This document shows, one piece after another, positions 3,861-48,106 of a stretch of DNA of 64,000 nucleotides (position 1 is its first letter; each line of letters begins with the position of its first letter). Made by a program: the position numbers and the translations under genes. This stretch comes from a virus (lineage: Duplodnaviria; Caudoviricetes): IMG/VR virus record IMGVR_UViG_3300028591_000110, positions 32,001 to 96,000 of that record; one strand, given 5' to 3'. The notes beneath the pieces are model-generated. The model searched no databases. It saw only the letters and a program-made list of their open reading frames with translations, and was not told where the DNA came from.

Positions 3861-4352
3861 GTGAAAAAGATGAAGGGTAAGACACTTGGATACATCAAGG
3901 GCGTACAGAACGTCCCTTACTGCAAGGCTGATGCTGACCTGAAGGTCGGTATGGGCGTCATTCTGGATCGCGTGAACAAGCTGGCAAAGCTGCCTGACAG
4001 CGCCGACGAGGCAAAGGCCTGCCACTACATCGTGAGCAACATCAACGACAAGCCGGAGCTTCACAACTTCAGCGAGACGCTGGATGTGAAGGAAGGCGAA
4101 TATGTCCGCGCAGACGATCTGACTTCCGTTGCAAACCTTGAGATGGAGTTTGCCGATTATGAAATCGACGACGATGTTGATGATCTCGCAGTCGGTGACG
4201 TTCTCGGCTTTGGCACTTCCGGTCTGCTTGAGAAGCTGGAGGCCGCTAAGGAAGGCGACGATCCCGCAGAGGGCTACAAGGTTTCCTTTGAGGTGATCCG
4301 CAAGACCGGCTACATGGGCAAGGGCGTTGACGTTCTCGTCCATGCGGACTAA
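3861..4352 (+). CDS. Putative head decoration/cement protein
   Basis: 163 aa, between scaffold and major capsid, highly expressed-type codon usage. Confidence 0.5.
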   Translation: MKKMKGKTLGYIKGVQNVPYCKADADLKVGMGVILDRVNKLAKLPDSADEAKACHYIVSNINDKPELHNFSETLDVKEGEYVRADDLTSVANLEMEFADYEIDDDVDDLAVGDVLGFGTSGLLEKLEAAKEGDDPAEGYKVSFEVIRKTGYMGKGVDVLVHAD

Positions 4353-4379
4353 TGAGAGAAATAGAGGAGGGAGAAGAAG

Positions 4380-5486
4380 ATGAACAACATCTATGAAATC
4401 AACATGCTGAATGCTCAGCGTGACGTAGATACAGGTCGGGTAAAGCAGGAGTCTCCTGTTGTCGAGGTTTTCTCTGCCCTGACCTCCGGTGTTGCGCCCA
4501 AGGTGGACGCAAAGACCAAAGACGCCGCTGTCAAGACCCTAAAGGATCTTGGCGCCAAGGCGCACGAGGGCGACAAGGAAGCCCGCAGCGAGGTAAACTC
4601 TATCGTTCGCTTCGCGATTCAGCCCAAGCTGCTCAAGCAAATTGAGCTCTATCGTTTCCTCGGCAGCCACAAAAAGCTCGACTGGAACGAAGCTGCCTAC
4701 ATGAAGACCTACAACTACGAAAGCATTGACTCTCGCTTCCAGGCCAGCAGCGGCGACGTGCCGTTTGGCTTTGTGAATTGGCGCGAGTATCCCATTGCAA
4801 CCCAGACCATTTCCGGCGGCATTGCAGTGGACTACCGCGAGATTGCAACCGGCAACTTTGACGGCAATCTTGCAGAGGCTATGAATCAGGTCAAGATTGA
4901 CATGCAGAACAAGATCGGCTACTACACGATCAATACGCTCTACAATGCAATCAAGTATGCAAAGGGCGTCAAGCACTTCTCTGAGGCTGCCGGCGTGTCC
5001 AAGCTGGCGGTGGACGACATGCTGAAGGTTATGCGTCGTTACGGCAAGGTCAACATCTGCGGCGACTACTCTGTGGTTTCTCAGATCAATGAGTTTGAGG
5101 GCTTCAAGACGATTGGCGCTGTTACCATTCCGTTCGGCGACGCCACTGTTGCTGAGGAAATTCGCAAGACCGGCCTCGTGAACTGGTATAACGGAGCATT
5201 CGTGACCGAGCTTCAGAACCAGATCAACTTTACGAAGCTCAATGCAACCGGCGACGATTACGAGCTTTATATGCCGCAAGGTCTGCTGTTCTTCCTGCCG
5301 GAAGGCGCAGTATCCCCGGTGCAGAGCTTTGTGCGCGGAAACCTCACCACGATGAGCGGCGACGACATCGTGACCCGTCAGCACATGATCCGTCTCGACC
5401 TCGAATTTGGCGTCGGCGTCGCAGAGGGTATGGAGCATCAGATCGGCCTGATCTCCGACAGCAACTACGATCTTCCCACCGTTTAA
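4380..5486 (+). CDS. Major capsid protein
   Basis: 368 aa, strong RBS, biased codons, position in head module, followed by a hairpin. Confidence 0.75.
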   Translation: MNNIYEINMLNAQRDVDTGRVKQESPVVEVFSALTSGVAPKVDAKTKDAAVKTLKDLGAKAHEGDKEARSEVNSIVRFAIQPKLLKQIELYRFLGSHKKLDWNEAAYMKTYNYESIDSRFQASSGDVPFGFVNWREYPIATQTISGGIAVDYREIATGNFDGNLAEAMNQVKIDMQNKIGYYTINTLYNAIKYAKGVKHFSEAAGVSKLAVDDMLKVMRRYGKVNICGDYSVVSQINEFEGFKTIGAVTIPFGDATVAEEIRKTGLVNWYNGAFVTELQNQINFTKLNATGDDYELYMPQGLLFFLPEGAVSPVQSFVRGNLTTMSGDDIVTRQHMIRLDLEFGVGVAEGMEHQIGLISDSNYDLPTV

Positions 5487-5507
5487 TCGGCGGGCTTTTT
5501 CTATTTC

Positions 5508-5535
5508 AGGGAGCGGATAACACCGCTCCCTAATT
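5508..5535 (+). terminator. Hairpin after capsid gene (putative terminator)
   Basis: AGGGAGCGG-ataaca-CCGCTCCCT inverted repeat. Confidence 0.5.
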
Positions 5536-5560
5536 TCAACTAAAAGGAGTCTTTTATTTT

Positions 5561-6019
5561 ATGGCGAACAACAATGTGAAGCTGAACAATTTGTGTGCAT
5601 GGCCTCTGTACTTCAACCGCGCAAGCGGCATGGGTTCCGTAAAGGTTCCTGCGAGTGCGAAGGGATATTCTATGCTGGATTTTGACGAGGTTCGGGCGCA
5701 GATTCAGCTTAACAACAAGTTTTTTGTTGGTGAGGACGGCATGGGCAACCATGCGCGGCTGCAGATTGTGGACGAAAAACAGCGCAATGAGCTGTTTGGA
5801 CTGGCAGAGGATGAGGTGGACGAGCCTGTGCTGCTTAATGACGAGAGCATCCGCGCACTGCTGGCGATCAAGTCCAAAGCCAAGTTTAACGACAAGCTGA
5901 ACAGTCTCGTGAAGACGAGCGCCGAGAAGAAAATGCTGGTACAGCTCGCATTTGCTGCCGGCGCGGAAGAGTGCGAAGCGTGGAAGGTTGACGCTCTTCG
6001 AGCAATGGCGGACGCCTGA
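5561..6019 (+). CDS. Hypothetical virion-module protein
   Basis: RBS AAGGAG, 152 aa ORF in operon. Confidence 0.6.
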   Translation: MANNNVKLNNLCAWPLYFNRASGMGSVKVPASAKGYSMLDFDEVRAQIQLNNKFFVGEDGMGNHARLQIVDEKQRNELFGLAEDEVDEPVLLNDESIRALLAIKSKAKFNDKLNSLVKTSAEKKMLVQLAFAAGAEECEAWKVDALRAMADA

Positions 6020-29626: not shown

Positions 29627-32600
29627 TTGATTCAGAGAATCAATGTTTCAGACCCTCCGAGACGGAAGATTAAAATCGGATACTACGAGGAGAACGAGTT
29701 CCGCAAGGTCGTGTTTGACGTATCCGATTGGAGGGAGGCGTACCCGAACGGCACGGCGTCTATCATCTTCAAGCGTGCTGACGGCGAGGTATATCCGATT
29801 GTGCCGAGAACTGACAGCGACGGCAATCCGGTATTTGTGCCGACGACCACGGAGACATGCAAGGTAGGCGACTGCGAGTTCCAGCTTCAGTGGAAGTCCG
29901 GAAGTGTGGTCGGCAAGACCTGCAATCTCCAAATGTGCGTGGAATCGGCGATTGGCGAATACGGAGACGTGCCGACGGATACAACCGACGACTGGATCGC
30001 ACAGATTGTTGCCGCGACGAGTGAGATTGTCGGACAGGCGCAGCAGGCGCAGAGAGCCGCTGAGACGGCTGCATCTCAGGCGCAGAGCGCAGCGCAGGCA
30101 GCTTCGCAGAGTGCTTCTTCGGCGAATGCAAGCGTCGGCAATCTCTCGGAGCTGCAGACGACGAACAAAGGCACTGTTGTCGCCGCCGTGAATGAAGTTC
30201 ACGGCGAGGCTGCTGCGGCACAGTCTGCCGCTGCTTCTGCAGCTTCGGACGCCAGCAGCGCAAACGCAGGAGTAAACACACTGAACGGCAAGGTTGGAGA
30301 TCTGAGCAATCTTACTACGGATGCGAAAAACAATCTTGTTGCTGCCGTCAATGAGGTGGATGCTCATGCGGACGCAGCACAGACTGCTGCGAATCAGGCG
30401 GCGTCTGCTGCTGCGCAAGCTGCAACGGCTGCAAGTCAGGCTGCTTCCAGCGCAGACGCGGCAAGCGGAAAAGTTGGAGATCTCAGCTCGCTGCAAACGC
30501 AATCAAAGAATAATGTAGTTGCGGCGTTGAATGAGGTGCTTCAGCGAATCGGAAGTTCGCTTAATCTTGATCTTCAAATGGATACAACAAACGGCAAACT
30601 GTATATCATGCAAGAAGGTGTTAAGGTTGGCCTAGGCGCGACAATTGCAGCAGAATCCGGTCTGTTGTTTGACAGCGGATTTGTTTCAAAGGTTGATGAC
30701 AATGGAATGCCTTCTGAGAATTATTACTTGCATCTCACTAAAGAGGGTGTAGAGCTGTCTTTGGACGATTTTGTTCCGTTTGTTGTACACGGAGACGGAG
30801 GCGGCGGTGGTGGTGGTCTCGTTTTTGACAGCGGCGCTTTTGAAAAAATTGACGAGGACGGCAACGCTTCCGACAGCTATTATCTGCATCTGAAGAGTGG
30901 GGACGAGGATATTACCGGCTTTACTCCAATTGAAGTACCGGCTGAGATGGGAAGCGGAGGCGGAGGCGCCGCAGCAGGCGGATCAACACTTATTCTGCGG
31001 TCAAGAATGGACTCCAAGACGTTTTCAATTATGGATGCGCAGACGGAGCTTCAGATGCTGTTTACATGGTCAAGCATTGACAACGCGACAGAAGAACCAA
31101 CCGGGGACGGCACTGCAAGCTGGTATGTCAACGGCACTCGCGTTGCAACAACGACCGTTGAGCAAGGTGACGGATCTTTTAACATCCGCCCATACCTTAC
31201 AACCGGACAGGCTAACTCTGTTAAGTTGTCAATTGAGGATAACTATGGCGTTGTCCGTCCATACACATGGAACGTCACGGTAACTGCTTATACCCTGACA
31301 TGGAATGCTCCTGCTTTGGAGAACCATGGTGAATCTTCAGACTATCAGCTTCGACTTGTAGCAAGCGGCGTTGGGAATAAGACGCTTGTTGTAAAGGTCG
31401 ATAACACGGAAGTGTCACGGCAGAATGTGGCTACAAGCGGCAGAACTACTACCGTTACAATTCCTGCAAATAATCTCGGACATGGAGCACACACTATTAC
31501 TGCATGGCTTGAGGTTACAATTGATGGTGATGTGATTTCAACGAATCCGCTTCGTCACGTCGGTATTTGGAAGAGATCTTCTTCCGTTACGCCGATTGTT
31601 GCAATTTACGACAGCGAGATTACGATGAAACAGCTTGCCACATACGGCATTAGATACATGGTATATGATCCTGCGTACTCTCCTGTTAATACAGAGCTTA
31701 TCGTAGACGGGGATACTGTGGCTAATGTAAGTGTTGGCCGTGACATTCAGACTTGGGCATACCGCGCAACTGAGGTCGGACAGAAAACGCTTTCAGTGAA
31801 ATGCGGTGTCACTACGGCTTCTGTCAGCGTGACGGTCGAGGATCTTGGATATGATATTGCCCCTGTAACGGATGGTCTTGTTGTTGACTTTGATCCTTCC
31901 GGACACAGCAATTCGGAGTCAAACAGAACCAGCTTTGGCTACAAGGATGCAAACGACACTGTGCATCCGCTCATTTATTCTGACGGAACAACGCAGAACC
32001 CGCACGGGGTCGCCTATCTTCCGTTTGACTGGACAAACGGCGGCTTCCAGACCGATAATGACGGCGTGACGGCTTTTGTCGTTCGGCGCGGATGCAGGGC
32101 GTGGTTTGATCGCAGCCTCTTTGCGGACAATGCAAAGGCAAGCGGAAAAAACATTGAGCTTATTTTCAAGGCAACGAATGTCAGAGACTTTGACGCCGAG
32201 ATTATGCGCTGCCTGTCTAATAATATCGGACTGCAATTCTATGCGAACACCGGGTATTTCCGGTGTCAGTCTACTTCCGTAGACATGAAGTGGTGCGAGG
32301 ACTCGAAGGCGGAAATTTGCCTGAGCGTAGAGTCTGCGACAGGCAAGGATCAGCCGAGAATGGAGATGTGGGACAATGGCACGCCGAGCAGAGGTCGAGT
32401 CTATGACACGAATACCATGTGGCTGCAGAACGACCCGGACTATTTCTGCATCGGTTCGGATGAGGCGGATGTTTGGGTTTATCGAATCCGCGCGTATAGC
32501 GCTTATCTGACCGATTCTGAGGTAAGAGCAAACTTTATTGCTGATGCTCCAACGCCGGAAGAGGCAATCAACAGATTCGTCAGAAACAACATCTATACAG

Positions 32601-35600
32601 ATGACGGCAGCACAATCAGCATTCAGCGTCTGGTTGCGGCGGCGCCAGATCTGCATGTAATTGAGATCAGAACGGCTGGTTTCCCAAGCGATAAAAAGAA
32701 CTTTATCCCATGCAGAGTAGAGCACTGGCTTGGTTCCGGCGGGCCGTCGCATCACTGGTGGACGGATTCGAACGCAGGATTTGTCTTGCAGGGAACGTCG
32801 TCTCTAAACTACATCGAAAGCTGCGGCAACCTTGATATCAGCATGGTTAACGCCACCATGACAAACGAAAGCGGTCAGGTCATGAGTGACGGATATGCAA
32901 TGACATCAAACAGCATCCCGGTTAAATATTTCAACACGAAAGCAAACACCGCTTCGTCTGACAATGCGAACAACACGGTTTCTGCGCAAATTTTTGATGA
33001 ATTTGACCCGTTTGAGCCTCTTGCTAAAGTGCGTGATCCTCGCATCAGAGACTCTGTGGAAGGTCATCCGTGCGCTGTGTTTGTCACGAATACAAGCGAC
33101 ACCGCTTTTAGGTGTGGATCAGACAAGGCGCGAGATGTTCAGCCAGGAGAAACGATCTTGTATCTCGCCGGCGATATGAATAACTCCAAGCTGACAACGA
33201 ACGTATTTGGAGAGAGCGATATCGTTGGGACAGACGGCGACGGCATCGGCGTCTTCTGTGTGGAATTTATGGATAACGGCTATCCAAGATGCAAGTTCTT
33301 GGAAGAGGCAACCATGCTGAATGAGACATGGGACAACGGGAACGGAGGCCAGTTTGAGTTCAGATACCCAACCAAGAAGGCCATTGATCCGAGCATTCAG
33401 ACGCCTCGTCAACCGACAGACGCCATGAAGATCAAGTTTATTGAGATGCAGAACTGGCTCTGCAGACTAAACCCAGATCCAACGATTGCAAATGGGCGCA
33501 GTCTCGGCGGATCTATCAGATTGTTTAATCCGGCCACTGGACTTGAAGAGACATTCATGTATGATACGCCGACGTATCGCGGCTGTAAGTTCCGTAATGA
33601 AGTCGCGAACTATTTCCATATTGACAGTCTTGTTTATTATTATGTGTTTACAACGATCTTCTGCTGCGTAGACCAGCGCTCTAAGAATACGTTTGTTACA
33701 TATGAACCTGACAAGAACGGGGTGTGGAAGTTCGATTACAGAGCGTACTACGACGGAGACACGATGCTTGGCATCAACAACAAGGGCGCTCTAACGCTGG
33801 ATTATGGCGTTGAAGACACGGATGAAGTTGTTGGCGGCGACGGTATGGCTTTTAATGCTTTCGAATCTGTGCTCTGGTGCTTGGTAAGAGACTATCTGCC
33901 GGATTATTGTTCCGCTGAGTTTAATCGTCTTGAGAGCGCCGGGCTAATCAGCGAAAGCTTTTTGAATAACCGATGGGATACGCATCAGCGTATTCGCCCG
34001 GAGGCGCTGATGACAGAAGACTTCCGGAATAAATACGACGGGCCGCTTGTTAGAAACGGAACCACTCTATATTACGAATCCATGCAGAACGGCGAGAAAT
34101 ACAGCCAGCGGCATGGATTTTTCCATTTCCAAGTCCCTTATATGCAGAGCAAATACCGCAGTGGACGAGCAAAGCAAAACAGTCTGCTTTTGGACGCTTA
34201 TTATTCTGCAACAGGTGCAATTGAAGCCGCTGCTTCTGTGGAGATTACGCCTTATATGGATATGTATATCACGATGCAGTGCGACAACTTTGGAACGGTT
34301 TCTGTAAGAGCGAAGAAGGGCGTCCCGACACGGGTAACTGTGTCAGGAAACGGAGGATCTGCCCCTGCGGGCGATACCGCTACGCAGATTTATAACTGCC
34401 AGTGGATTACGTCGTTCGATTCTTTGGCGCAATTCTATACGCAGCAGTTTGCCGGCACTTTGACAAAGCTTCGTTATCTGCCGCTCGGCAGTTCTGTTTC
34501 CGGATATCAGAACAGAAACCTGACAACGCTCGGCTCTACGGATTTGCCGATGCTTGAGTATTTGAACCTTGGCGGCCTTGTAAATCTTGAAACGAACATC
34601 GATCTTAGCAGATGTCCGTTCCTTGAGGAAGTTTACGCAAACGGCGCAGGTATCACAGGTATTACGCTTGCGCGTGGCGCAGCGATCGAGATTTTGCAGC
34701 TCCCGGCGGTTTCGCGTTTGATTGCGCTGGATTTGCAAAAGCTGCTCCCCGCAAACTTTACTTTGGATATGAGTAACCTGAGCTTGCTGCACGTTGAAAA
34801 CAGCCCCGGCGTCAATACGCAGAGCATCGTCCAGAATGCAACCGAGCTTGCATACGGTCGTCTGATTGGCGTGAACTGGAACATGGACAACCCAGATCCG
34901 GTTATGGCGTTGATCGGAAAGACCGGTCTGAACGAAGAGAGCGAGGCGGAAGGCACGTTTGTTTTGACCGGTGCAGTAACCTTTGCTGCTATTTCTCAAA
35001 ACGAGTACAACCGTCTGCATGCCGCATTCCCGAATTTGACGATCAACTATACGTCGCTTCTTTCAGAACATACGGTGCGATTCTACAATTGGGATGGCAC
35101 ACCGTTGTGGGAGGAATCTGTTCGTCACGGCGGAACGGCACCGAACCCAATTGTAACCGGAGACATTCAAACTCCGACGCGCCCAGCGTCCGGCCAATAC
35201 GAATATGTCTATCGTTACTGGTCTGAGTCTCTGGATAATGTCGTTGAGGATTTGGATGTTTACGCAGATTATCTTGCACAGGAGCGCACACTCACTGTTC
35301 GCTGGCATGACGCCGCAGGCGGCGTCATGACGCAATATACAAAGACCTGCAGATATGGGCAGGGCGTAACGTATACCGGCCCGGATATGCCGGACAGGGG
35401 CAGCGGCGCAAACAAGGAATACTGGATGGGCTGGGATAAGCCAACCACAAATGTAACAGAAGATCTTGACGTGTATCCGCAGTATGTTCTTCCGACTACG
35501 CCGCTTGGAAAGCCATTGACGTATGACTATGCGTATTCCGATGATCCAAATGATATTTCTGCATACACGTTGGCGGAGTTCTGGGGCGCTCTGAAGAGCG

Positions 35601-36271
35601 ATAATCCTGCTGCGTATCTTGCAGAGCATGACAAGATCAAGATTGTTATGCCGGCGAGCAAACCAAACAGCAATATTACAGACACTACCATTGAGCTGAA
35701 GGTTGCCGGATTTAACCGCTTCAAACTTTCTGATGGTTCCGGTAATTTCGCGAAGACGGTATTTGTAATGTGCAACTGCCTGAATGCTACTCGCGCGATG
35801 AATGGATCGAATACGAATGCTGGCGGCTGGCCTGCTACGGCTATGCGTTCGTTCCTGAACAACAGCTTGATTAAGGACTTCCCGATTCAATGGCGCAGAA
35901 TGATTCAGCAGGTCGAAGTATTGTCTACGGCAGGTGCTTCATCTACGGAGATTGTAAAGAGCAACGACTATCTGTTCCTTCCTTCCTACACGGAGGTTGG
36001 ATTTGGAACGACAGATCCGTACATTAACGAGATTGACTCTGCTGTGTACGGAAGCGATATGACATACGCAAAGTGGCCAGTCTTTACCGACAATGCATCG
36101 CGTATTAAAAGAATCGGCGGTTCCAACGGAACCGCAACTATCTGGTGGTTGCGCTCTCCGATTGCGGAGGCCGGTACTTTTTGGTATATGCTTACCTCCG
36201 GCAGTCGCGATAACGGGAACTATTATACATCCAATTCAGTTAGGGGCGTCGCGTTCGGCTTCTGCATTTGA
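29627..36271 (+). CDS. Large receptor-binding/tail fibre protein; DGR target with C-terminal CLec-like (DUF6273-type) variable domain
   Basis: BppU-like N-terminus, Ala-rich fibre repeats, LRR-like segment, C-terminal YLFLPS..EV...WWLRSP...GVAFGFCI*; directly upstream of avd/RT. Confidence 0.85.
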   Translation: MIQRINVSDPPRRKIKIGYYEENEFRKVVFDVSDWREAYPNGTASIIFKRADGEVYPIVPRTDSDGNPVFVPTTTETCKVGDCEFQLQWKSGSVVGKTCNLQMCVESAIGEYGDVPTDTTDDWIAQIVAATSEIVGQAQQAQRAAETAASQAQSAAQAASQSASSANASVGNLSELQTTNKGTVVAAVNEVHGEAAAAQSAAASAASDASSANAGVNTLNGKVGDLSNLTTDAKNNLVAAVNEVDAHADAAQTAANQAASAAAQAATAASQAASSADAASGKVGDLSSLQTQSKNNVVAALNEVLQRIGSSLNLDLQMDTTNGKLYIMQEGVKVGLGATIAAESGLLFDSGFVSKVDDNGMPSENYYLHLTKEGVELSLDDFVPFVVHGDGGGGGGGLVFDSGAFEKIDEDGNASDSYYLHLKSGDEDITGFTPIEVPAEMGSGGGGAAAGGSTLILRSRMDSKTFSIMDAQTELQMLFTWSSIDNATEEPTGDGTASWYVNGTRVATTTVEQGDGSFNIRPYLTTGQANSVKLSIEDNYGVVRPYTWNVTVTAYTLTWNAPALENHGESSDYQLRLVASGVGNKTLVVKVDNTEVSRQNVATSGRTTTVTIPANNLGHGAHTITAWLEVTIDGDVISTNPLRHVGIWKRSSSVTPIVAIYDSEITMKQLATYGIRYMVYDPAYSPVNTELIVDGDTVANVSVGRDIQTWAYRATEVGQKTLSVKCGVTTASVSVTVEDLGYDIAPVTDGLVVDFDPSGHSNSESNRTSFGYKDANDTVHPLIYSDGTTQNPHGVAYLPFDWTNGGFQTDNDGVTAFVVRRGCRAWFDRSLFADNAKASGKNIELIFKATNVRDFDAEIMRCLSNNIGLQFYANTGYFRCQSTSVDMKWCEDSKAEICLSVESATGKDQPRMEMWDNGTPSRGRVYDTNTMWLQNDPDYFCIGSDEADVWVYRIRAYSAYLTDSEVRANFIADAPTPEEAINRFVRNNIYTDDGSTISIQRLVAAAPDLHVIEIRTAGFPSDKKNFIPCRVEHWLGSGGPSHHWWTDSNAGFVLQGTSSLNYIESCGNLDISMVNATMTNESGQVMSDGYAMTSNSIPVKYFNTKANTASSDNANNTVSAQIFDEFDPFEPLAKVRDPRIRDSVEGHPCAVFVTNTSDTAFRCGSDKARDVQPGETILYLAGDMNNSKLTTNVFGESDIVGTDGDGIGVFCVEFMDNGYPRCKFLEEATMLNETWDNGNGGQFEFRYPTKKAIDPSIQTPRQPTDAMKIKFIEMQNWLCRLNPDPTIANGRSLGGSIRLFNPATGLEETFMYDTPTYRGCKFRNEVANYFHIDSLVYYYVFTTIFCCVDQRSKNTFVTYEPDKNGVWKFDYRAYYDGDTMLGINNKGALTLDYGVEDTDEVVGGDGMAFNAFESVLWCLVRDYLPDYCSAEFNRLESAGLISESFLNNRWDTHQRIRPEALMTEDFRNKYDGPLVRNGTTLYYESMQNGEKYSQRHGFFHFQVPYMQSKYRSGRAKQNSLLLDAYYSATGAIEAAASVEITPYMDMYITMQCDNFGTVSVRAKKGVPTRVTVSGNGGSAPAGDTATQIYNCQWITSFDSLAQFYTQQFAGTLTKLRYLPLGSSVSGYQNRNLTTLGSTDLPMLEYLNLGGLVNLETNIDLSRCPFLEEVYANGAGITGITLARGAAIEILQLPAVSRLIALDLQKLLPANFTLDMSNLSLLHVENSPGVNTQSIVQNATELAYGRLIGVNWNMDNPDPVMALIGKTGLNEESEAEGTFVLTGAVTFAAISQNEYNRLHAAFPNLTINYTSLLSEHTVRFYNWDGTPLWEESVRHGGTAPNPIVTGDIQTPTRPASGQYEYVYRYWSESLDNVVEDLDVYADYLAQERTLTVRWHDAAGGVMTQYTKTCRYGQGVTYTGPDMPDRGSGANKEYWMGWDKPTTNVTEDLDVYPQYVLPTTPLGKPLTYDYAYSDDPNDISAYTLAEFWGALKSDNPAAYLAEHDKIKIVMPASKPNSNITDTTIELKVAGFNRFKLSDGSGNFAKTVFVMCNCLNATRAMNGSNTNAGGWPATAMRSFLNNSLIKDFPIQWRRMIQQVEVLSTAGASSTEIVKSNDYLFLPSYTEVGFGTTDPYINEIDSAVYGSDMTYAKWPVFTDNASRIKRIGGSNGTATIWWLRSPIAEAGTFWYMLTSGSRDNGNYYTSNSVRGVAFGFCI
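30133..30545 (+). repeat. Three fibre repeats VG(N/D)LS.L.T..K...VAA.NEV with Ala/Ser/Gln spacers
   Basis: Seen in the translation. Confidence 0.7.
36132..36262 (+). repeat. DGR variable region (VR) of the target gene
   Basis: Identical over 131 bp to cassette 3 (37307-37437); lies at the 3' end of the gene. Confidence 0.95.
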
Positions 36272-36290
36272 CCGAAACGACCGAAAAACC

Positions 36291-36386
36291 GGGGCGCGAA
36301 CAGCGCCCCTGCCAATCTGCGTCAAGCACGCAGATAAAAATAGAAGAGGGCAGCGAAATATCTGCCCTCTCTCGCCGCGAAGCGGC
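36291..36386 (+). promoter_or_regulatory. Cluster of four hairpins downstream of VR (candidate DGR target-recognition cruciform/terminator)
   Basis: GGGGCGC/GCGCCCC 36291-309; ATCTGCGT/ACGCAGAT 36315-335; AGAGGGCAG/CTGCCCTCT 36345-370; GCCGC/GCGGC 36374-386. Confidence 0.65.
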
Positions 36387-36425
36387 AAAATTTTGATAAA
36401 AATTCTGAGAAATCGAATATTACAG

Positions 36426-36454
36426 TAGGCATTCAATCTCGAACATGGTAGAAT
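36426..36454 (+). promoter_or_regulatory. Candidate promoter for the avd-array-RT transcript
   Basis: TAGGCA-17 bp-TAGAAT with extended -10 TG at 36446-47. Confidence 0.45.
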
Positions 36455-36472
36455 ACCACAGAGAAAGGAGGA

Positions 36473-36958
36473 GTGCCTATGCCTCATGACAAAAGTAAGA
36501 CATCATACTCGAACCGGCCATTGCCGGAATCACAACCGAAAAAGAAAGAGCCGCCGCACTATTTGCTGCGAGCACAGGAATTGCAAGCCTATACGATCAA
36601 CACATGCAGAGACATCAACAGCAACCCAGACAGGGGCGGCAAAGGATTGTCGTTCTATCTGCTTGTGCCGATGGGAAATCTTGCGCAGGAGATCACAGCC
36701 CATTGCGCTGCTGCGGACGACAACTATCCGACATGCAGACAGGACTGGATTGATCGAAGAAGAGACTTATATGCGGCACGACGAGCAGCAAAGGAACTAA
36801 GTAGTATGCTGACTGTGGCATTACAGGTCAAAAGTTTTAATGTCAGCGAACATGTTGTAGAGGAGTGGGCGAAGAAGATCAATAGGGTGATTGCGCTATT
36901 GAATAAGACGATAAAAAGTCATGAAGAAAACAAACAGCTTTTGGAAGTAGACTATTAA
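36473..36958 (+). CDS. avd: Avd-like accessory variability determinant (four-helix bundle)
   Basis: 161 aa basic helical protein between target and template/RT; strong RBS AAGGAGG; W...I......L..  C-terminal helix. Confidence 0.7.
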   Translation: MPMPHDKSKTSYSNRPLPESQPKKKEPPHYLLRAQELQAYTINTCRDINSNPDRGGKGLSFYLLVPMGNLAQEITAHCAAADDNYPTCRQDWIDRRRDLYAARRAAKELSSMLTVALQVKSFNVSEHVVEEWAKKINRVIALLNKTIKSHEENKQLLEVDY

Positions 36959-39686
36959 GGTCATGAACTAAATCACGACGCAACTATCTGGTGGGTGCGC
37001 TCTCCGAGGTCGGCGAGTTCCGTCGGGTTTTGGTCGGCGGCTACCGGCGGCAGCACGTTGGGCGGCCCCGGCTCTGACTCAGCAGGCTCGTGGTGGGGCG
37101 TCGCGTTCGGCTTTTCTTCGGGTTTTGTCTTATCATGCGACGTGCTGTCTGGTGGTTGCGCTCTCCGCGCGTAGATGATACTACTTTTTCAAAGTTTGTA
37201 CCGGTCTCTGCGGCTGGATCTTCAAGTGTTCTGAACCATCAAGATCCGGCATCTGCCTCGAATGGCGTCGCGTTCGGCTAATCTTCTAGGTTGTGCTCTA
37301 ATAACGCCGCAACTATCTGGTGGTTGCGCTCTCCGATTGCGGAGGCCGGTACTTTTTGGTATATGCTTACCTCCGGCAGTCGCGATAACGGGAACTATTA
37401 TACATCCAATTCAGTTAGGGGCGTCGCGTTCGGCTTCCTTTGCGTGGTCATGTTCTGATTAGTTATGCAGGCGTATGGTGGTTGCGCTCTCCTGCTAGTG
37501 GCGTGGCATCACGATTCATAAGCCCGTCTAGCAGTGGGTCTTTGGATCAGTGGGGTGCGCAGTCATCTATGGGCGTCGCGTTCGGCTTCAAAATATGGTC
37601 ATACTCTTTAGAGATGATGCGCTTTCTGTGGTTGCGCTCTCCGATTGGTACATCCAATGCTGTTTGCTGGGCTAGTGATGGTTCCGGCGCACAAAAAGAT
37701 GTCTCTTGGAACGGGGCTGCGTATCCGCAGGGCGTCTCGTTCGGCTTCTCAGAATGCAGGCTATGTCCCGAGCGAGTTTTCGCCTAGCTGGTGGTTGCGC
37801 TCTCCGTTGACGGGGAACGCTGATAGGTTTGTGAACGCGAACACGAATGGTTCGTATAACAACAACAACGCCAACAACAGCAACGGCGTCGCGTTCGGCA
37901 TCTTTCTAGGTCTTGTTCTAATCGTTTGAACGCACTATCTGGTGGTTGCGCTCTCCGATTTCTGGGAGTGCGTCTTCCTTCCCGTATGTTTCTACTAGCG
38001 GATCGCAGGATTCGCGTAACGCCAGTGGAAACAACGGGGTTGGTTGTGGCGTCGCGTTCGGCGTCTTTTCAAGGTCTTGCTCTGTATTTACGCGATTATT
38101 CTGGTGGTTGCGCTCTCCGTGGACTACTGCGTCTGAGATGGTTGATATGGTCACGGAAGGCGGCGCTCGCAATGCTAACACAAGCAATAGCTACAAAGCG
38201 AGCAGTTATCACGGCGTCGCGTTCGGCATCTTTCTAGGTTTTGCCCTAAGATGCTTCGTCATTTTGGTGGTTGCGCTCTCCGCGTTCTTCAACTGACAAT
38301 GCGTTCTTAAACGTGTTGGCTACAGGCGGGGGCGATTGGAATGTCAGGGATGCAAACAACACCTATGGCGTCGCGTTCGGCTTTTCTTAGGTTGTACCCC
38401 AAAAAGTGCGGCGCACTAGCTGGTGGTTGCGCTCTCCGTGGAATGGTCGTTCTGATTATTTCGAGGTTCTTAGCTCTGACGGTTCTCGCAATAACAGCAC
38501 GTCAGGTGTTTCAGGGGACGCGCATAACGCAGGCAGGGCACAAGGCGTCGCGTTCGGCATCTCTTTTGGCAGTGCTCTAATGCGTCTCGCTCTGCATCTG
38601 GTGGTTGCGCTCTCCGTATACGGCTTATTCCGATATGATTTGTGGAGTTTTGGACAGCGGTCGTTTTACGGGTTATCTCAATAACGCTCGCGCTTCCACC
38701 CAGAATGGCGTCGCGTTCGGCTTCGGTCATGGTTGTGTCCTGATTTTGCGTCGCCTTCGCCGGTGGTTGCGCTCTCCGACGGCTGTTCGCTCGGATCTCA
38801 TTGTTCCGGTCAGCGCCGCCGGCGGCACAGTCAACAACTATAATGTTCATGGCGCTCAAGCAAGCTACGGTTATGGCGTCGCGTTCGGCTTAATTAAATT
38901 GGTCTTGCCTCATCATTGATTTGCATGTGTTGGTGGTTGCGCTCTCCGCATGTTGGAGTGTCTACTTATTTTCGCTTTTCAAACGGGAACGGATCGCCAA
39001 ATATACAAGCAGACTATAACGCGACAAGTGCGTATGGCGTCGCGTTCGGCTAATCTTCTAGGTTGTGCTCATAATCGTGACGCAACTAGCTGGTGGTTGC
39101 GCTCTCCGGCTTCTTGGGCTTCCACCTTATGTATGGTTGTGCGAGATAATGGCTTGGCTATTTCCCAAAGCGGCTATGCGAATCTTGGCACTCCGTCCGG
39201 GGCTCAGGGCGTCGCGTTCGGCTTTCTTTTGATGGGCTGTACCTTTGATGCGATTGCCGCCATGGTGGTTGCGCTCCCCGCGCCTGAATGATTCTTGGTT
39301 TCATGGCTGCGCTACTGGCGGAGTGTGGGCGAATTTTAATTCGCTGCCATCTGGAGCGGGCGTCGCGTTCGGCTTATATTATGGCTGTGTTCTATGAGCG
39401 GCGAGACTATCTGGTGGTTGCGCTCTCCACGATCCTCCTCTGAGTCGAGCGGGTATCAGGTTCTCACATCTGGTTCTCCGTCTTGGCAGACAGATGCGTG
39501 GAATCAGGGCGCCGGCGTCGCGTTCGGCATCGATTAGGGCAAGGTTATACTCTGTTGTTTATGGCGTTTTTCTGGTGGTTGCGCTCTCCGCATTCTGTTT
39601 ACGAGGGCTATTTCTTTCGCGCGTCATCTGCGGGTGATCGCGATTGGCAGTCTGGCGGAAACCCAAACACCGGCGTCGCGTTCGGC
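36959..39686 (+). repeat. Array of 17 DGR template-like cassettes
   Basis: Cores from TGGTGGTTGCGCTCTCCG to GGCGTCGCGTTCGGC (minor anchor variants in a few units) at 36989-37111, 37150-37278, 37318-37434, 37476-37586, 37626-37745, 37789-37899, 37940-38062, 38102-38227, 38265-38381, 38421-38558, 38599-38721, 38761-38889, 38931-39050, 39091-39222, 39263-39373, 39412-39528, 39573-39686; all lengths are multiples of 3 with no stops; linkers ~37-44 nt. Confidence 0.95.
37789..37899 (+). ncRNA. Cassette 6: classical AAC-rich template repeat (TR)
   Basis: 10 AAC + 1 AAT among 26 variable codons (LTGNADRFVNANTNGSYNNNNANNSN). Confidence 0.8.
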
Positions 39687-39945
39687 TTCACACGGGCGAC
39701 AGAGTAGAGTATTTGAAAACAGACCGTATGAAGAGAAGGAGGGCATGGCCTTTCTCATGTCAAAAGCATGAGATAAAACGCCTCCAAGTTGGCGTGGGTT
39801 GATCCGCGTCACAGATGACCTGCAGGCGGACGCTATCGAGCTTGGTATCGCTTGACGGTGATGCGATATTTCAAGCCTGCAGGCTACGCAGCTAGTGGAA
39901 CCGTCCGAAAAGCTGTACAGGGAGAGAATATAAATAACATAGGTG
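39687..39945 (+). ncRNA. DGR spacer (Sp) structured RNA region
   Basis: Non-coding stretch between last cassette and RT; hairpins TCTCATGT/GCATGAGA, ACGCC/GGCGT, CCTGCAGGC/GCCTGCAGG, GTATCGC/GCGATAT; AGGGCATGGCC is complementary to the cassette leaders. Confidence 0.65.
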
Positions 39946-39952
39946 ATTTGTT

Positions 39953-41209
39953 TTGACTGGTACACAGAGAAGAAAACAGAAAATCTATGAGCGGCGCGTC
40001 GCAAGGCGGGCTGCTAAACGAGCTGAACGCAATAAGACCTACGGCAGTTTTTATTGGGTGTTTCAGCACGGAAATGTTGACCGTGGTTTCAGAGACATTC
40101 GCAAGAAGCTGGTAAAGTGCGCTGACGGCATTTGGTACTGTGTGCACGCTCCGATTAACGAAGTACACACATGTAAGAAGTTAATGAACGGGACGTACAA
40201 ATTCCGTCCTCTTCGCAAAAAGCATATTAAGCAGCGAGGAAAACCGAGGGATATTGGGATCGGAGCCGCAGAGGACAGGGTTGTTTTAAGTACGCTGACA
40301 ACGCACTGCTTGATGCCGATGATTGAACCAAGACTAATCAACACATGCACAGCCGGTCGTCCAAACATGGGGCCGGAGGTCGCGATGCTTCAGCTTGAAG
40401 AAATGCTGAAGGATCACTACCGAGAGCACGGCACGGACGGGTATGTTCTAATCTTCGACATCCGTAATTACTACGGCAGTATTGACCGGGATAAACTTGG
40501 CGTCATGCTGCGTAAAGTAATCAAAGATCAGCGCTTGATTCGGCTTATCGAGGATTCAAATGACGTCGCGATTCCGGACAGCAGGATCGGCATCAATCTT
40601 GGCAGCTCTACTTCTACGATGCTTGCTGCGCTTTATATGAGCGGAGTGGATCATTATATGAAAGAAGTTTTGCGGCTCAGATACTACGGGCGCCATGGGG
40701 ATGATGGGTTTATCATTCATCATGATAAGGAGTTTCTGCTTTCCGTTCTGGACGCGCTGCGCGAAAAGACTTCTGAGCTTGGTTTGGAATTGCATCCGAA
40801 GAAAACGCAGATTATCAAACTTACCAAAGGGTTCCGATGGCTGAAAGTGAAGTGGAAACTGAAAGAAACCGGATACGTTGTGAAGAAAATGAATCACGAT
40901 ATCGTGACGCGAGACAGCAAAAAGATGAAGAAATGCCTTGCTTTAGAGGCAGAAGGTCTTACTACTATGAATTATATTCGCAATTCTGTGTGGAAGGGCT
41001 GGCTGAACAAGTCGAAGAATCCGGATCTTATCAGGCAAAAGCCGATCCGCAAAGGCTTCAAAAAGCGGTTTAGATATGATAATTACTTTGTCAGGATAAA
41101 AATGGCGAACAGGTATTACAGCCTGTTCGGTGAGTGGGAGGGCTGTAATAGAGATGTATTTTATCAAATTATTGGAGAACGACGAAGTAGTCGGAGCCGA
41201 GCAGCTTGA
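39953..41209 (+). CDS. DGR-type reverse transcriptase with atypical motifs
   Basis: RGKPRDI, EDRVV, YVLIFDIRNYYGSID, GINLGSSTS, YYGRHGDDG, LGLELHPKKTQI, GFRWLK; 418 aa; no maturase or endonuclease domain seen. Confidence 0.9.
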   Translation: MTGTQRRKQKIYERRVARRAAKRAERNKTYGSFYWVFQHGNVDRGFRDIRKKLVKCADGIWYCVHAPINEVHTCKKLMNGTYKFRPLRKKHIKQRGKPRDIGIGAAEDRVVLSTLTTHCLMPMIEPRLINTCTAGRPNMGPEVAMLQLEEMLKDHYREHGTDGYVLIFDIRNYYGSIDRDKLGVMLRKVIKDQRLIRLIEDSNDVAIPDSRIGINLGSSTSTMLAALYMSGVDHYMKEVLRLRYYGRHGDDGFIIHHDKEFLLSVLDALREKTSELGLELHPKKTQIIKLTKGFRWLKVKWKLKETGYVVKKMNHDIVTRDSKKMKKCLALEAEGLTTMNYIRNSVWKGWLNKSKNPDLIRQKPIRKGFKKRFRYDNYFVRIKMANRYYSLFGEWEGCNRDVFYQIIGERRSSRSRAA

Positions 41210-41696
41210 AGTGCTTGAGTATGTTCGACAAGATACAAACGGAAATAATATTCGATGCTCTGTGCTTTCGGCGCAGGGCATCATTTCATTAGATGGCGGT
41301 TCGATCTATCAACTTGACGGCAAGCCCGCAATGGTCGGCGGGTATAAGATCGCTGTGTTTATTGATGGCGACGAATACAGCGAGATTATCCAGGAGCTTC
41401 AGGACGAAGATCCGGATGACGACATTCCCGCCAGCGACGAGGCTTTGACGCGGGAGGAGCTGACTGCGAAAGTAGCAAAGCTTGAGGAAATGAACACCAT
41501 GCTTACAGGAATGCTCCTCGAAAACCGAGAGGACAGCATGAAAGCGTCCAAGGTATACAGCGAGGGCGATCTCATCATTGTAAACGGCGAGCTGTATAAG
41601 GTTCTTGCAAAAATCGCAAACGGTTCTTTGCTGACTGTAGGCACAAATGTAAAACAAACAACTATTGCGGCTGAGATTGCCGCATTAAGTGTATGA
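41154..41696 (+). CDS. Hypothetical tail-fibre-associated protein
   Basis: Acidic ORF overlapping the RT 3' end; C-terminal Y..GD.I..NG.LYKV module. Confidence 0.6.
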   Translation: MYFIKLLENDEVVGAEQLEVLEYVRQDTNGNNIRCSVLSAQGIISLDGGSIYQLDGKPAMVGGYKIAVFIDGDEYSEIIQELQDEDPDDDIPASDEALTREELTAKVAKLEEMNTMLTGMLLENREDSMKASKVYSEGDLIIVNGELYKVLAKIANGSLLTVGTNVKQTTIAAEIAALSV

Positions 41697-42014: not shown

Positions 42015-43304
42015 GTGGCTACGAATGAGGAAGTAATCTGGTCTTTCCTGTATGACAAGATCGGCAATGCATACGGCGTTGCCGGGCTGATGGGGAATCT
42101 CTACGCAGAAAGTGCGTTGAAGCCTACAAATTTGCAGAACAACTTCGAAACCAAGCTCGGATACAGCGATGCATCCTACACCGCTGCGGTTGACAACGGC
42201 GTTTACAAGAACTTCACGATGGACGGCGCCGGATACGGATTGGCGCAGTGGACATATCGGACACGCAAGGCGGCTCTGCTTGCTTACACGCAGGCACAGG
42301 GCAAATCTATCGGAGACTTGGACACTCAGCTTGCGTTTCTATGGAAGGAGCTGCATGAGAATTTCGCAACAGTTGTGAAAACTCTGAAATCCGCAAAGAG
42401 CGTGAAAGAGGCTTCCAACGCTGTTCTGCTCAAGTTTGAGGCTCCGAAAGACCAGAGCGAAAAAGTACAGGCATTGAGGGCGAGCTACGGACAGGCGTAC
42501 TACGACAAGTACGCAATCGCTCCGATGTCGGAGGAGGAGAAGATTATGGCTGATCTAGGGATCATCAATATGCCGGCGCACAGCACGAATCAGTGGTATC
42601 GCAACGGCAACAAGATTCAGTACATCGTAATGCACTACGTTGGTGCGGTCAGCACGGCCAAAAACAATGGCTCTTACTATGGGAATACTGCGAATATCGG
42701 CGCGAGTGCGCACTATTTCGTGGATGAAAATCACATTGTTGCTTCCGTGCCGGAGATTATGAGTGCAGGACACTGCGGTGTTGACTATTCGGGCGGCAAG
42801 GCGCCGTTCTGGGGCAAGTGCACGAACAAAAACAGTATCGGCATTGAAATGTGCTGCAAGAAAACCGCAAGCGGACAGTGGTACATTGAGCCAGCAACGG
42901 TTACGAAGTCTGTTGCACTTGTGAAGTGGCTTATGGCGAAGTATGGCATTGACGCGGCTCATGTGGTGCGTCACTACGACGTCTGCTACAAGCGTTGCCC
43001 TGAACCGTGGGTTCGCGACGCTGCGCAGTGGGCGGACTTTAAGCGAAGAATCAGTGAGGAGGAAATTGACATGACGAAAGCTGAAGTAAAAGATATGGTC
43101 AAGGAGATCGTGACCGAAATGCTTACGGGCGCAAACACTGAGCCCAGCGATTGGGCAAAGAAAGAGATGGGCGAGCATCTTGAGGATGTAAAGCACATCA
43201 CGGACGGCACTCGTCCGCGCGGATACACCAAGCGCGAGGAGACGGCTGCCATGGTTCGTCGCGCCGAGAAGCGTCTGATGGCAAAGATCGAAGAGTTGAA
43301 GTAA
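42015..43304 (+). CDS. Endolysin: phage-tail-lysozyme-like domain + Amidase_2 + C-terminal cell-wall-binding domain
   Basis: GLMGNLYAES, GYGLAQWT; IVMHY, SAHYFVD, SIGIEMC, RHYDV..K.CP. Confidence 0.85.
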   Translation: MATNEEVIWSFLYDKIGNAYGVAGLMGNLYAESALKPTNLQNNFETKLGYSDASYTAAVDNGVYKNFTMDGAGYGLAQWTYRTRKAALLAYTQAQGKSIGDLDTQLAFLWKELHENFATVVKTLKSAKSVKEASNAVLLKFEAPKDQSEKVQALRASYGQAYYDKYAIAPMSEEEKIMADLGIINMPAHSTNQWYRNGNKIQYIVMHYVGAVSTAKNNGSYYGNTANIGASAHYFVDENHIVASVPEIMSAGHCGVDYSGGKAPFWGKCTNKNSIGIEMCCKKTASGQWYIEPATVTKSVALVKWLMAKYGIDAAHVVRHYDVCYKRCPEPWVRDAAQWADFKRRISEEEIDMTKAEVKDMVKEIVTEMLTGANTEPSDWAKKEMGEHLEDVKHITDGTRPRGYTKREETAAMVRRAEKRLMAKIEELK

Positions 43305-46744: not shown

Positions 46745-48106
46745 CTATTTGTTGTTGCTGATCGCGAGCAGAAGTTGAAGCAATTCAGGGGACGCGGCAA
46801 TGGCTGAAATGACCTGATCTTTCTTTGCTTCGATGTCGTCCGGGGTGGTGACGCCGTTCGAGAAAAATGCTTTTTCCATGAGAACGGCAAGCCTTTTTCG
46901 ATCTTCATCAAAAATTTCTGCATACACATCTGTAACCATAGCTGCTTGTGCGTGTCCGGTGTCTCCTTGGACTGCCTTAATGTCGCCGCCTGATAGTTTG
47001 AGTTTTTCTGATGTGCTGAGATGGCGGAGGGAGTGGAAGACAACCTCTTCAAACCCATGCTCTAAAATGAAAGACTTGAAATCTTTTGCGATCAGACGTT
47101 CTTCCACGGGTCTACCGTTTGGCTGGGCGATGACCATGTTATAATCCTGATAGAGTCCGTGCAAATGCTCCATTTGTTCAAGCTGCTCTTGCCGGATCTC
47201 TTTCATAAACTTTGCTACGGTGTCCGGAACGAATACAGTGCGGCAGCTCGATTTCGTCTTTGGTTCTTTCAGAACGAGGACGGTCTTGCATGCAGATTTG
47301 ACTTTGAGATCCGGGAAGCGGAAGAATACCTTTGTGCGCTTCTTTTCTTCCAGTTTCTCCAACGTACTATTGCTGCATCGCTTCAGTTCCTGCTTGATCT
47401 TGATCGTTGTGAGGCCGTTATCCTTGAATTTGACTTCCGGCCATTGAAGGCCAAGAATCTCACCGATTCGCATACTGCATCCGATGGATAACATCATGCA
47501 GAGCTTCAGGATTTTGTTGTCGCAAACTGTGAGCGCTTGCATGGCTGTTTCACGATCCCAAACAACACGCTTGTTCTGATCGTATTCCGGAATGACCGCA
47601 TCTGCAGCAGAATTGTTTTGCGCATATCCCCAAGCGATCCCTTGCTTATAAGCGTTTCGGAGCAGACTGTGGATCTTCTCAATGACCGACGGCGACACGG
47701 TTTTCTCTGTGTCTTTATGGCCGGCAAGCTGGACAGCAGGGTAGGATAGAAGATCGGAATAGTATTCGCTGATATCTTCCGCGTCCAGATCTTTGAAGAT
47801 CCTGTTTCCGATCAGCGGCTTGATGTAATCGTTGATCCTGTGAACCGATGTGGAATAGTAGCTGTCTCCCCATTTTAAGGCGCCGTATCTCTCTACATAG
47901 AGATCCATGAACTCGGATACCGTAAGGTTGTCGTTTCGCTTCGTCTTCTTTGGCGGTTTCAGCGTTCCGCGTTTTTTCTCAAGCTCAATGATCGCGCATC
48001 TCAGAACGGCTTCTTCCTCTGTGTCGAAGCTCTCCTTGAAGGGCTTATCATACCCTTTGACGCGATATTGAACCTTCCATTTGTTTCCGTGTTTTGTGGG
48101 TTTCAT
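46745..48106 (-). CDS. int: Tyrosine integrase
   Basis: MRIGEILGL, FHSLRH, TGHAQ..M..DVY catalytic residues. Confidence 0.92.
   Translation of the reverse strand: MKPTKHGNKWKVQYRVKGYDKPFKESFDTEEEAVLRCAIIELEKKRGTLKPPKKTKRNDNLTVSEFMDLYVERYGALKWGDSYYSTSVHRINDYIKPLIGNRIFKDLDAEDISEYYSDLLSYPAVQLAGHKDTEKTVSPSVIEKIHSLLRNAYKQGIAWGYAQNNSAADAVIPEYDQNKRVVWDRETAMQALTVCDNKILKLCMMLSIGCSMRIGEILGLQWPEVKFKDNGLTTIKIKQELKRCSNSTLEKLEEKKRTKVFFRFPDLKVKSACKTVLVLKEPKTKSSCRTVFVPDTVAKFMKEIRQEQLEQMEHLHGLYQDYNMVIAQPNGRPVEERLIAKDFKSFILEHGFEEVVFHSLRHLSTSEKLKLSGGDIKAVQGDTGHAQAAMVTDVYAEIFDEDRKRLAVLMEKAFFSNGVTTPDDIEAKKDQVISAIAASPELLQLLLAISNNK

Follow-up and report, generated by a model that had tools for sequence, protein, structure and literature searches.

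The 64,000-nucleotide stretch of DNA analysed here (hereafter the window) covers positions 32,001 to 96,000 of IMG/VR record IMGVR_UViG_3300028591_000110 and is part of the 135.5-kb genome, rated complete, of a rumen phage (Duplodnaviria; Caudoviricetes). It contains a locus built like a diversity-generating retroelement (DGR), whose genes, cassettes and spacer all lie on the plus strand: a tail-fibre target gene ending in a variable region (VR), two hairpins, an avd-like accessory gene, an array of 17 tandem cassettes, a structured spacer RNA and a reverse transcriptase (RT) gene, which is the order of elements that the original prediction had given. DGRs are known as single-template point mutators. 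Our results indicate that in this phage whole cassettes of a stored library are copied into the expressed fibre gene, and that the RT is rather likely to be the enzyme that copies them.

The target gene (29627..36271) is an open reading frame (ORF) of 2214 amino acids that matches PHROG tail-fibre families and encodes a C-terminal DUF6273 domain (residues 2058-2206; Pfam, E 2.1e-17). Its last 39 codons, ahead of a terminal FCI-stop, are enclosed by the first pair of two short conserved sequences, here called anchors, that also bound every cassette; the VR core between both anchors spans 36143-36259. Over 131 bp the VR is identical to cassette 3 (36132-36262 = 37307-37437), with 0 differences and all 23 adenines unaltered. 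Past the stop codon of the target lie two GC-rich hairpins, at 36291-36309 (7 G-C pairs) and 36344-36371, which are candidates for a terminator or a DGR target-site hairpin; a GC-rich hairpin 20-35 nt past the VR is also present in the related loci L017, L018 and L028, discussed below, and a scan for promoters and terminators gave promoter counts close to chance.

The array itself (36989..39686) was delimited by anchor searches, Stop strands and frame counts, and has a period of about 150-180 nt, each unit being composed of a Stop strand (an 11-nt element complementary to the spacer, see below), the 5' anchor, a unique middle of 78-105 nt and the 3' anchor. When up to 3 mismatches were allowed over the window, the 18-nt 5' anchor (WWLRSP) was found 18 times between 36143 and 39590, always on the plus strand and with 0.08 copies expected by chance, and the 15-nt 3' anchor (GVAFG) stood at the 18 corresponding places, one in the VR and 17 in the cassettes. 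All 17 cores are multiples of 3 in length (111-138 nt), and their middles hold 0 stops in 500 in-frame codons, compared to 8 and 31 when read in either of the remaining frames; after shuffling, the middles had 21.9 stops on average, and not one of 2000 shuffles reached zero. These anchor and stop counts confirm what had been predicted, namely 17 in-frame, stop-free cassettes bounded by the anchors of the VR. The accompanying statement that the linkers break the frame or hold stops is correct for 13 of the 16, and incorrect for C4-C5, C7-C8 and C11-C12, which are 39 nt long, in frame and open. The possibility that the cassettes are separate genes was considered and rejected, as starts are absent and the linkers are mostly frame-breaking. 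The Logan assembly of the source run, which is independent, reproduced 35000-41300 with 0 mismatches at an even depth of 13-15, and was interrupted only at the 131-bp repeat shared by the VR and cassette 3 and at one repeated linker; arrays of this kind were also present outside this run, in three further runs and on the unrelated contigs L011, L013 and L014. An assembly artefact, which the prediction itself had named as fatal, is not borne out by this independent assembly and by the arrays seen elsewhere.

Evidence that cassettes move into the VR came from the contigs of four runs, belonging to four studies, which we compared with window positions 35000-41300; they represent the same phage lineage, about 3% diverged (the fibre gene in X2 and X4, for example, shows 34 differing bases in about 1160 nt). 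In X1, the source run and the one that best holds the phage, a sheep gut metagenome, the VR and cassette 3 (37318..37434), the donor of the VR in this genome, are merged in one 131-nt contig at double depth. In X2, from bovine gut, the VR anchor is followed by the first 13 nt of cassette 12 (38761..38889; 13/13), the contig entering the VR 3' anchor starts with the last 13 nt of the same cassette (12/13), and a 130-nt cassette-12 contig is present at about double depth, the VR and cassette 12 having collapsed together. In X3, also from bovine gut, a contig links the end of cassette 13 (38931..39050), at 39035, to the VR 3' anchor, at 36245, and extends into avd, and in X4, whose origin is not given, the 12 nt after the VR anchor match the start of cassette 9 (38265..38381) at 11 positions. 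Each of these loose ends has a single match in the window, at the exact first or last base of a cassette middle, and the contig ends sit k-1 bases inside each repeat, as is expected of true junctions. Because all four donor cassettes (3, 9, 12 and 13) are still in the array of the window, the transfer is a copy and not a cut, and the finding of four samples with four different VR cassettes implies one-way copying, from array to VR. Wherever the complete tract is visible, which is the case for cassette 3 in X1 and for cassette 12 in X2, the copying was faithful; in X3 and X4 only one VR end is visible. On the strength of this natural variation, we are confident that the cassettes form a library from which entire units are copied into the expressed gene with the donors kept, as had been proposed; a VR always occupied by cassette 3, the outcome that the proposal regarded as its own refutation, was not seen, the occupants across runs being cassettes 3, 12 and 13 and one that is cassette-9-like.

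When differences between these strains were tested for adenine bias, none was found, the changes being mostly transitions in both directions. The arrays vary among strains: position 1 is occupied by another cassette in X3, and at several joints cassettes are missing or replaced. A minor relative in X1, 15% diverged and seen in a 151-nt contig of depth 2.9 (window 36081-36160), carries after the anchor a sequence that matches 0 of the 17 cassettes, which, together with position 1 of X3, indicates that the cassette repertoire varies between strains. Cassette 6 (37789..37899) is the sole AAC-rich one (10 AAC) and resembles a canonical template repeat (TR), its end matching the TR end of L017 at the protein level. 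The idea that the other cassettes are adenine-mutagenised copies of cassette 6 was discarded, as their lengths differ and non-A and synonymous differences are present, as judged by eye. As a separate observation, the AAC-rich end of cassette 6 (37858-37899) matched many foreign contigs with unrelated flanks in all four runs, at a depth of 103 in X3; these belong, as templates or VRs, to other DGRs with targets of this family, and such DGRs must be abundant in rumen samples.

Between the array and the RT gene lies the spacer RNA (39690..39945), which matches the Rfam family RT-2 (RF03077) over its full length with 72.3 bits, compared to a gathering score of 40 (E 1.4e-15). Identity to the related locus L010 is 92.5% for the spacer and 79.5% for the RT gene, the non-coding spacer being the more conserved of the two. 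In RT-2 spacers, a purine box that does not vary precedes box B, which is 11 nt long and variable, and after box B come a short stem-loop and an A-rich run; here these elements lie at 39730-39739, 39740-39750, 39754-39772 and 39773-39778, respectively, and in L010 the stem-loop carries a compensatory change. Ahead of each of the 17 cassettes, 17-20 nt from the 5' anchor, stands an 11-nt Stop strand of which 9-11 positions pair with the single box B; the first (36959..36969) precedes cassette 1 and 16 more lie in the linkers, while the VR is without one (7/11 only). Within the linkers, the Stop strand alone is well conserved; where it varies, it mostly has C or U facing a G of box B, and the positions facing C or A are invariant. 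Stop strands were found elsewhere too, in 6 of 6 cassettes of L014 and, weaker, in L013 and L011. Furthermore, 17 distinct single-template loci each have an 11-nt element, located before the TR about 200 nt upstream, that complements box B of the same locus, with many compensatory changes; the mean score with the own box was 9.76, versus 6.32 +/- 0.39 with boxes permuted among loci, and in 0 of 1000 permutations was it as high.

In the Bordetella phage BPP-1, the 'cPRT Stop' is an 11-bp duplex formed by an upstream avd segment and the spacer and followed by a stem-loop and adenosines, which adjoins the template:primer duplex, is needed for cDNA synthesis, and terminates the cDNA 4-8 nt before the duplex (BPP-1 structure preprint). 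The predicted duplex of Stop strand and box B corresponds to this element, and the locus has the structured spacer with Stop duplex that is typical of DGRs; identity between the VR and cassette 3 starts 7 nt past the Stop strand. Such a strand would be useless to DNA recombination and useful to the reverse transcription of single cassettes, which favours the RT as the copying engine. With regard to priming, RNAduplex comparison of each 3' flank with the whole spacer gave no significant z-scores, though it pointed to the box-B site; against the primer box only, the flanks of the array had a mean of -8.4 kcal/mol, versus -4.45 for random 15-mers, and 5 cassettes were individually significant. 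The template:primer duplex co-varies in several single-template loci. It was also observed that the 5' anchor (window 36147-36157 and in each cassette) is itself complementary to box B at 10 of 11 positions and that this 11-mer is one base away from the commonest linker Stop strand; this complementarity is shared by L011 (9/11) and L028 (by eye), and is not found in the single-template L017. It may serve target recognition or be a cause of array growth.

The RT (39953..41209; 418 amino acids) matches Pfam RVT_1 and PHROG 1423 (E 7e-57), and its nearest solved relative is the Bordetella DGR enzyme bRT (8ub7, E 1.5e-15). In alignments with 80 IMG/VR DGR-type RTs, and with the RTs of sister loci whose TR/VR pairs are proven, identity was 30-37%, which places the enzyme in the DGR clade. 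When 88 RTs were aligned, 5 of the array clade and 83 others, the final Gln of the DGR signature [I/L/V]GxxxSQ was kept in 83 of 83 others and was Thr or Ala in all 5; similarly, YMDD was present in 79 of the 83, and HGDD or YGDD, with the Met lost, in 5 of 5. The RT of the window, with LGSSTST and HGDD, thus lacks the signature combination of [I/L/V]GxxxSQ and YxDD, and retains the catalytic DD. In the cryo-electron microscopy structure of bRT, the base of the nucleotide being incorporated is contacted by Q187, which is the counterpart of this Gln, and by I181 and R74 (10.1101/2023.10.23.563531). The natural reading of these altered motifs, which we infer from sequence, is a changed fidelity. 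The ratio of nonsynonymous to synonymous substitutions (dN/dS) of the RT gene relative to L010 is 0.05, a sign of strong purifying selection, and hence the enzyme is not decaying.

For the avd-like gene (36473..36958; 161 amino acids), sequence evidence alone is weak: it matches PHROG 3206 ('Avd protein of DGR', E 1e-4) and, below the family cut-off, the TIGR02436 four-helix bundle (E 1e-3), a Pfam scan returned nothing, and a sequence search of the PDB gave one irrelevant weak match (E 1.6). Its structural model, however, has four helices (predicted local distance difference test score, pLDDT, of 78) and aligns with the Avd chains 8ub7_E and 4dwl_C with TM-scores of 0.80-0.84 normalised by target length. 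An accessory protein of the Avd type is therefore present, placed as in the sister loci L017, L018 and L019, and like the RT and the RT-2 RNA it is intact.

Relatives of this RT are rare. Four were found, at 45-87% identity, and a single-protein search in IMG/VR returned none; a megablast search against GenBank phages gave no match. The contigs of L009 and L010 begin inside a last cassette, and the other close RT relatives show an array, among them L011, with at least 7 cassettes and nearly identical anchors in spite of an RT that is only 45% identical. A search with the anchor pair uncovered two further short metagenome (JGI) contigs with 4-6 cassettes each, and the pattern was absent from other IMG/VR contigs. 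In the single-template sisters L017, L018 and L019, the exact place of the array is occupied by a single TR. L017, for instance, consists of a 257-residue DUF6273 target, avd, one AAC-rich TR, an RT-2-like spacer and RT, and in L018 the fibre exceeds 2100 residues. TR-VR mismatches in these sisters fall at adenines (15 of 15 within the template tract, and 16 of 16), with 40-42% of template adenines changed, and by their sequences they are ordinary adenine-mutating DGRs. At the rate of the sisters, the chance of finding 23 unaltered adenines, as in the VR studied here, is about 1e-5. L028 (IMG/VR UViG 3300000287_000008, 4250-5900) is intermediate, with three tandem units and a canonical RT (SQ, YMDD). 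Differences between its VR and the spacer-adjacent unit, an AAC-rich TR, fall almost exclusively at adenines, and upstream of this TR come two adenine-depleted template variants of the same length, each with its own Stop strand; L028 may represent an early stage of an array, an archive of mutagenised copies.

Taken together, these data lead us to favour, as somewhat better than an even proposition, a DGR that has changed from mutating one template to a non-mutagenic choice among many, and, with about the same conviction, a copying engine that is the RT with its DGR machinery, as deduced from the sequence features described. The avd-array-spacer region would be transcribed as one RNA, in which box B of the sole spacer would pair with the Stop strand of one cassette, as the avd segment does in the Bordetella phage DGR, and this Stop duplex would present the chosen cassette to the Avd-RT complex. 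The RT, with its altered nucleotide-contacting residues (Gln to Thr/Ala, Met to Gly), would then make a faithful cDNA ending a few bases before the Stop duplex, and this cDNA would take the place of the VR by way of both anchors (18 and 15 nt), perhaps with the ERF protein of the phage as annealing factor. The fibre would thereby acquire a different tip, 37-46 residues long, and with it presumably another receptor specificity. Put in its strongest form, that of a programmable, error-free 'gene conversion through RNA' in which one spacer selects any of 17 templates by entering a Stop duplex with the leader of the chosen template and a non-mutagenic RT writes the tip, we give the proposal an even chance of being correct.

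Several observations weigh against this model. There is one spacer for 17 cassettes, and donors 3, 9, 12 and 13 lie 0.6-2.3 kb away from it, while the spacer-proximal cassette 17 is not among the observed donors. Cassette 12 serves as a donor even though neither its 3' flank nor that of cassette 16 pairs convincingly with the primer box, and as only 5 cassettes were significant, a template:primer duplex is not established for every cassette. In the distant array of L011, the linker elements form only 8 of 11 pairs with their own box, and, the linkers being homologous, the 17 Stop strands do not count as independent events. Instead of a higher fidelity, the altered RT motifs might reflect an activity that has changed or been lost. 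The evidence for switching consists of contigs, which conceal minor alleles. Moreover, faithful copying is equally expected of DNA gene conversion, and the phage encodes an ERF single-strand annealing protein (G000:C1:106555-107031, outside the window) that could drive conversion at the DNA level, just as it could assist the annealing of a cDNA. No RecA or RecT gene was found in the phage.

Because of this ERF gene, DNA gene conversion is the main rival, an explanation that we regard as possible and nonetheless doubtful. Silent donors would be recombined into the VR through the anchors by ERF or by the RecA of the host, and RT, Avd and spacer would serve occasional mutagenesis from cassette 6, or the building of the array. 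Besides the exact copies with unchanged adenines, the retained donors and the ERF gene itself, it would account for the use of donors distant from the spacer and for that of cassette 12 in spite of its flank. The anchors of 18 and 15 nt, however, are short for a RecA-type exchange. Gene conversion also leaves unexplained why a spacer-complementary Stop strand at a fixed distance should be the sole conserved element of the linkers, why the array is constantly placed between avd and an RT-2 spacer, and why strong purifying selection acts on an RT whose clade-specific changes fall at residues in contact with the nucleotide. The original prediction had left the choice between retrohoming and gene conversion undecided, and the RNA and RT evidence now favours the RT, without proof.

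The remaining explanations fare worse. If the cassettes were an archive only, that is, past VRs stored by a flow from VR to array, or decayed duplicates of a template, they would not be donors at all; the upstream units of L028, which look like adenine-depleted template variants of the same length and suggest that arrays may start as archives, speak for this view, as does the resemblance of cassette 6 to a relic template. Four diverged strains, however, have four VRs that each match a cassette of the window, and a single expression site could not have carried all of these in the time since the array arose, so that at least three of them must have come into the VR from the array; the middles, in addition, are maintained in frame and free of stops. 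An archive without donor function is thus very unlikely. We attach even less probability to a shufflon- or integron-like site-specific recombination by a phage tyrosine recombinase, for which two Phage_integrase-family genes are available, one in the window (46910-47542, minus strand), about 5.7 kb downstream of the RT, and one outside it (G000:C1:9359-9835). The cassettes are all direct repeats on one strand without inverted flanking sites, the donor copy remains, no recombinase gene adjoins the array, and no serine recombinase or invertase was found in the phage. Least probable of all, to the point of being negligible, is an assembly artefact or a meaningless tandem duplication: repeats do confuse short-read assemblers, and the contigs of relatives break at the array, but the mismatch-free independent assembly at even depth, the arrays in three other runs and in L011, L013 and L014, and the 500 in-frame codons without a stop all argue against it.

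How the locus relates to known systems can be seen by comparing it with the DGR of BPP-1 (mtd VR, avd, TR, spacer, brt), with which it shares the order of target with VR, avd, template position, structured spacer and RT; the Avd fold and bRT as the nearest solved RT; the GC-rich 3' anchor and the hairpin after the VR; a VR placed at the C-terminal end of a phage tail fibre, whose tip is here a weak match to lectin folds; and a spacer with Stop-duplex strand, stem-loop and A-rich run. Unlike BPP-1, it has 17 templates of differing length and one spacer site common to 17 Stop strands, its VR is an exact copy without adenine changes, and its RT is without the signature Gln and the Met of YMDD. 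The single-template DGRs of the RT-2 type from gut and rumen phages (L017, L018, L019 and about 20 IMG/VR loci) share the WWLRSP...GVAFG target family, the RT-2 spacer, the Stop duplex and the gene order, with RTs 30-37% identical; the sisters differ in having one AAC-rich TR, adenine-only mismatches and canonical SQ and YMDD motifs. The locus lacks two defining features of DGRs, the VR showing no differences at template adenines and the RT no signature, and it keeps the rest of the machinery.

In Borrelia vlsE/vls, Neisseria pilE/pilS and Treponema tprK, an expression site is accompanied by tandem cassettes that are promoterless and start-less and have conserved flanks, and gene conversion proceeds by one-way copying, with donors retained and mosaics formed. 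The phage locus resembles vls and pilS in its one expression site, its start-less cassettes with shared flanks, and one-way copying with the donor kept, and differs from these bacterial systems in belonging to a phage, lying inside a retroelement, having RNA elements for reverse transcription at each cassette, and transferring whole cassettes, not mosaics. Mu Gin, P1 Cin and shufflons switch tail fibres by DNA inversion among 2-7 options. Like them, the phage appears to alternate between ready-made fibre tips for host range; unlike them, it offers 17 options and has no inverted repeats, adjacent invertase or reciprocal exchange, all its anchors being on one strand and its tyrosine recombinases not adjacent. 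Our search of the literature on DGR template arrays, silent cassettes and multiple TRs found no description of such an array; it did return two-TR loci serving different VRs, and TR variants between strains.

That the fibre tip binds receptors and determines host range is deduced from its place in a tail fibre, from the DUF6273 domain and from a fold match of the C-type-lectin kind, which is weak. The model of the fibre tip is of low confidence (pLDDT 65); its top fold match is 9qa6 (Z 12.2), and it weakly matches C-type-lectin folds, among them the DGR variable proteins 2y3c (Z 5.3) and 5vf4 (Z 3.4). Foldseek found no match to it in the PDB at E <= 0.001, and a search for close relatives of the tip returned distant targets only, at 47% identity or less. 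Elsewhere in the fibre (window 33590-33820, residues 1321-1397), there is a weak CotH-kinase-like match below the cut-off (E 2.9e-4), and a faint one is also present in the fibre of L018. Downstream, a 188-residue ORF without a family match (window 41130-41696, plus strand) overlaps the 3' end of the RT gene, ORFs of 109-183 residues occupy the equivalent place after the RT in L009, L011, L012 and L017-L019, and a lysis module follows, with a lysozyme/amidase gene at 42015-43304; the 188-residue ORF may be part of either the retroelement or this module.

The same machinery that in other DGRs mutates a single template seems here to have become a means of choosing among stored solutions, pre-tested and of varying length, and its natural switching is seen across cattle and sheep gut samples. 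If the RT is indeed the engine, then DGR reverse transcription can be faithful, and the two altered active-site positions are candidates for the control of adenine misincorporation; a single priming RNA would address many templates by means of an 11-bp code, which could be useful for retroelement-based genome-writing tools, and phages would join the bacteria that vary by silent cassettes (vls, pilS, tprK), with consequences for the evolution of host range in the gut virome. Should recombination prove to be the engine, the locus would still be an undescribed phage cassette library nested in a retroelement. If gene conversion through RNA is true, it would constitute a natural, multiplexed and template-addressable DNA writer and a new switch of viral host range.

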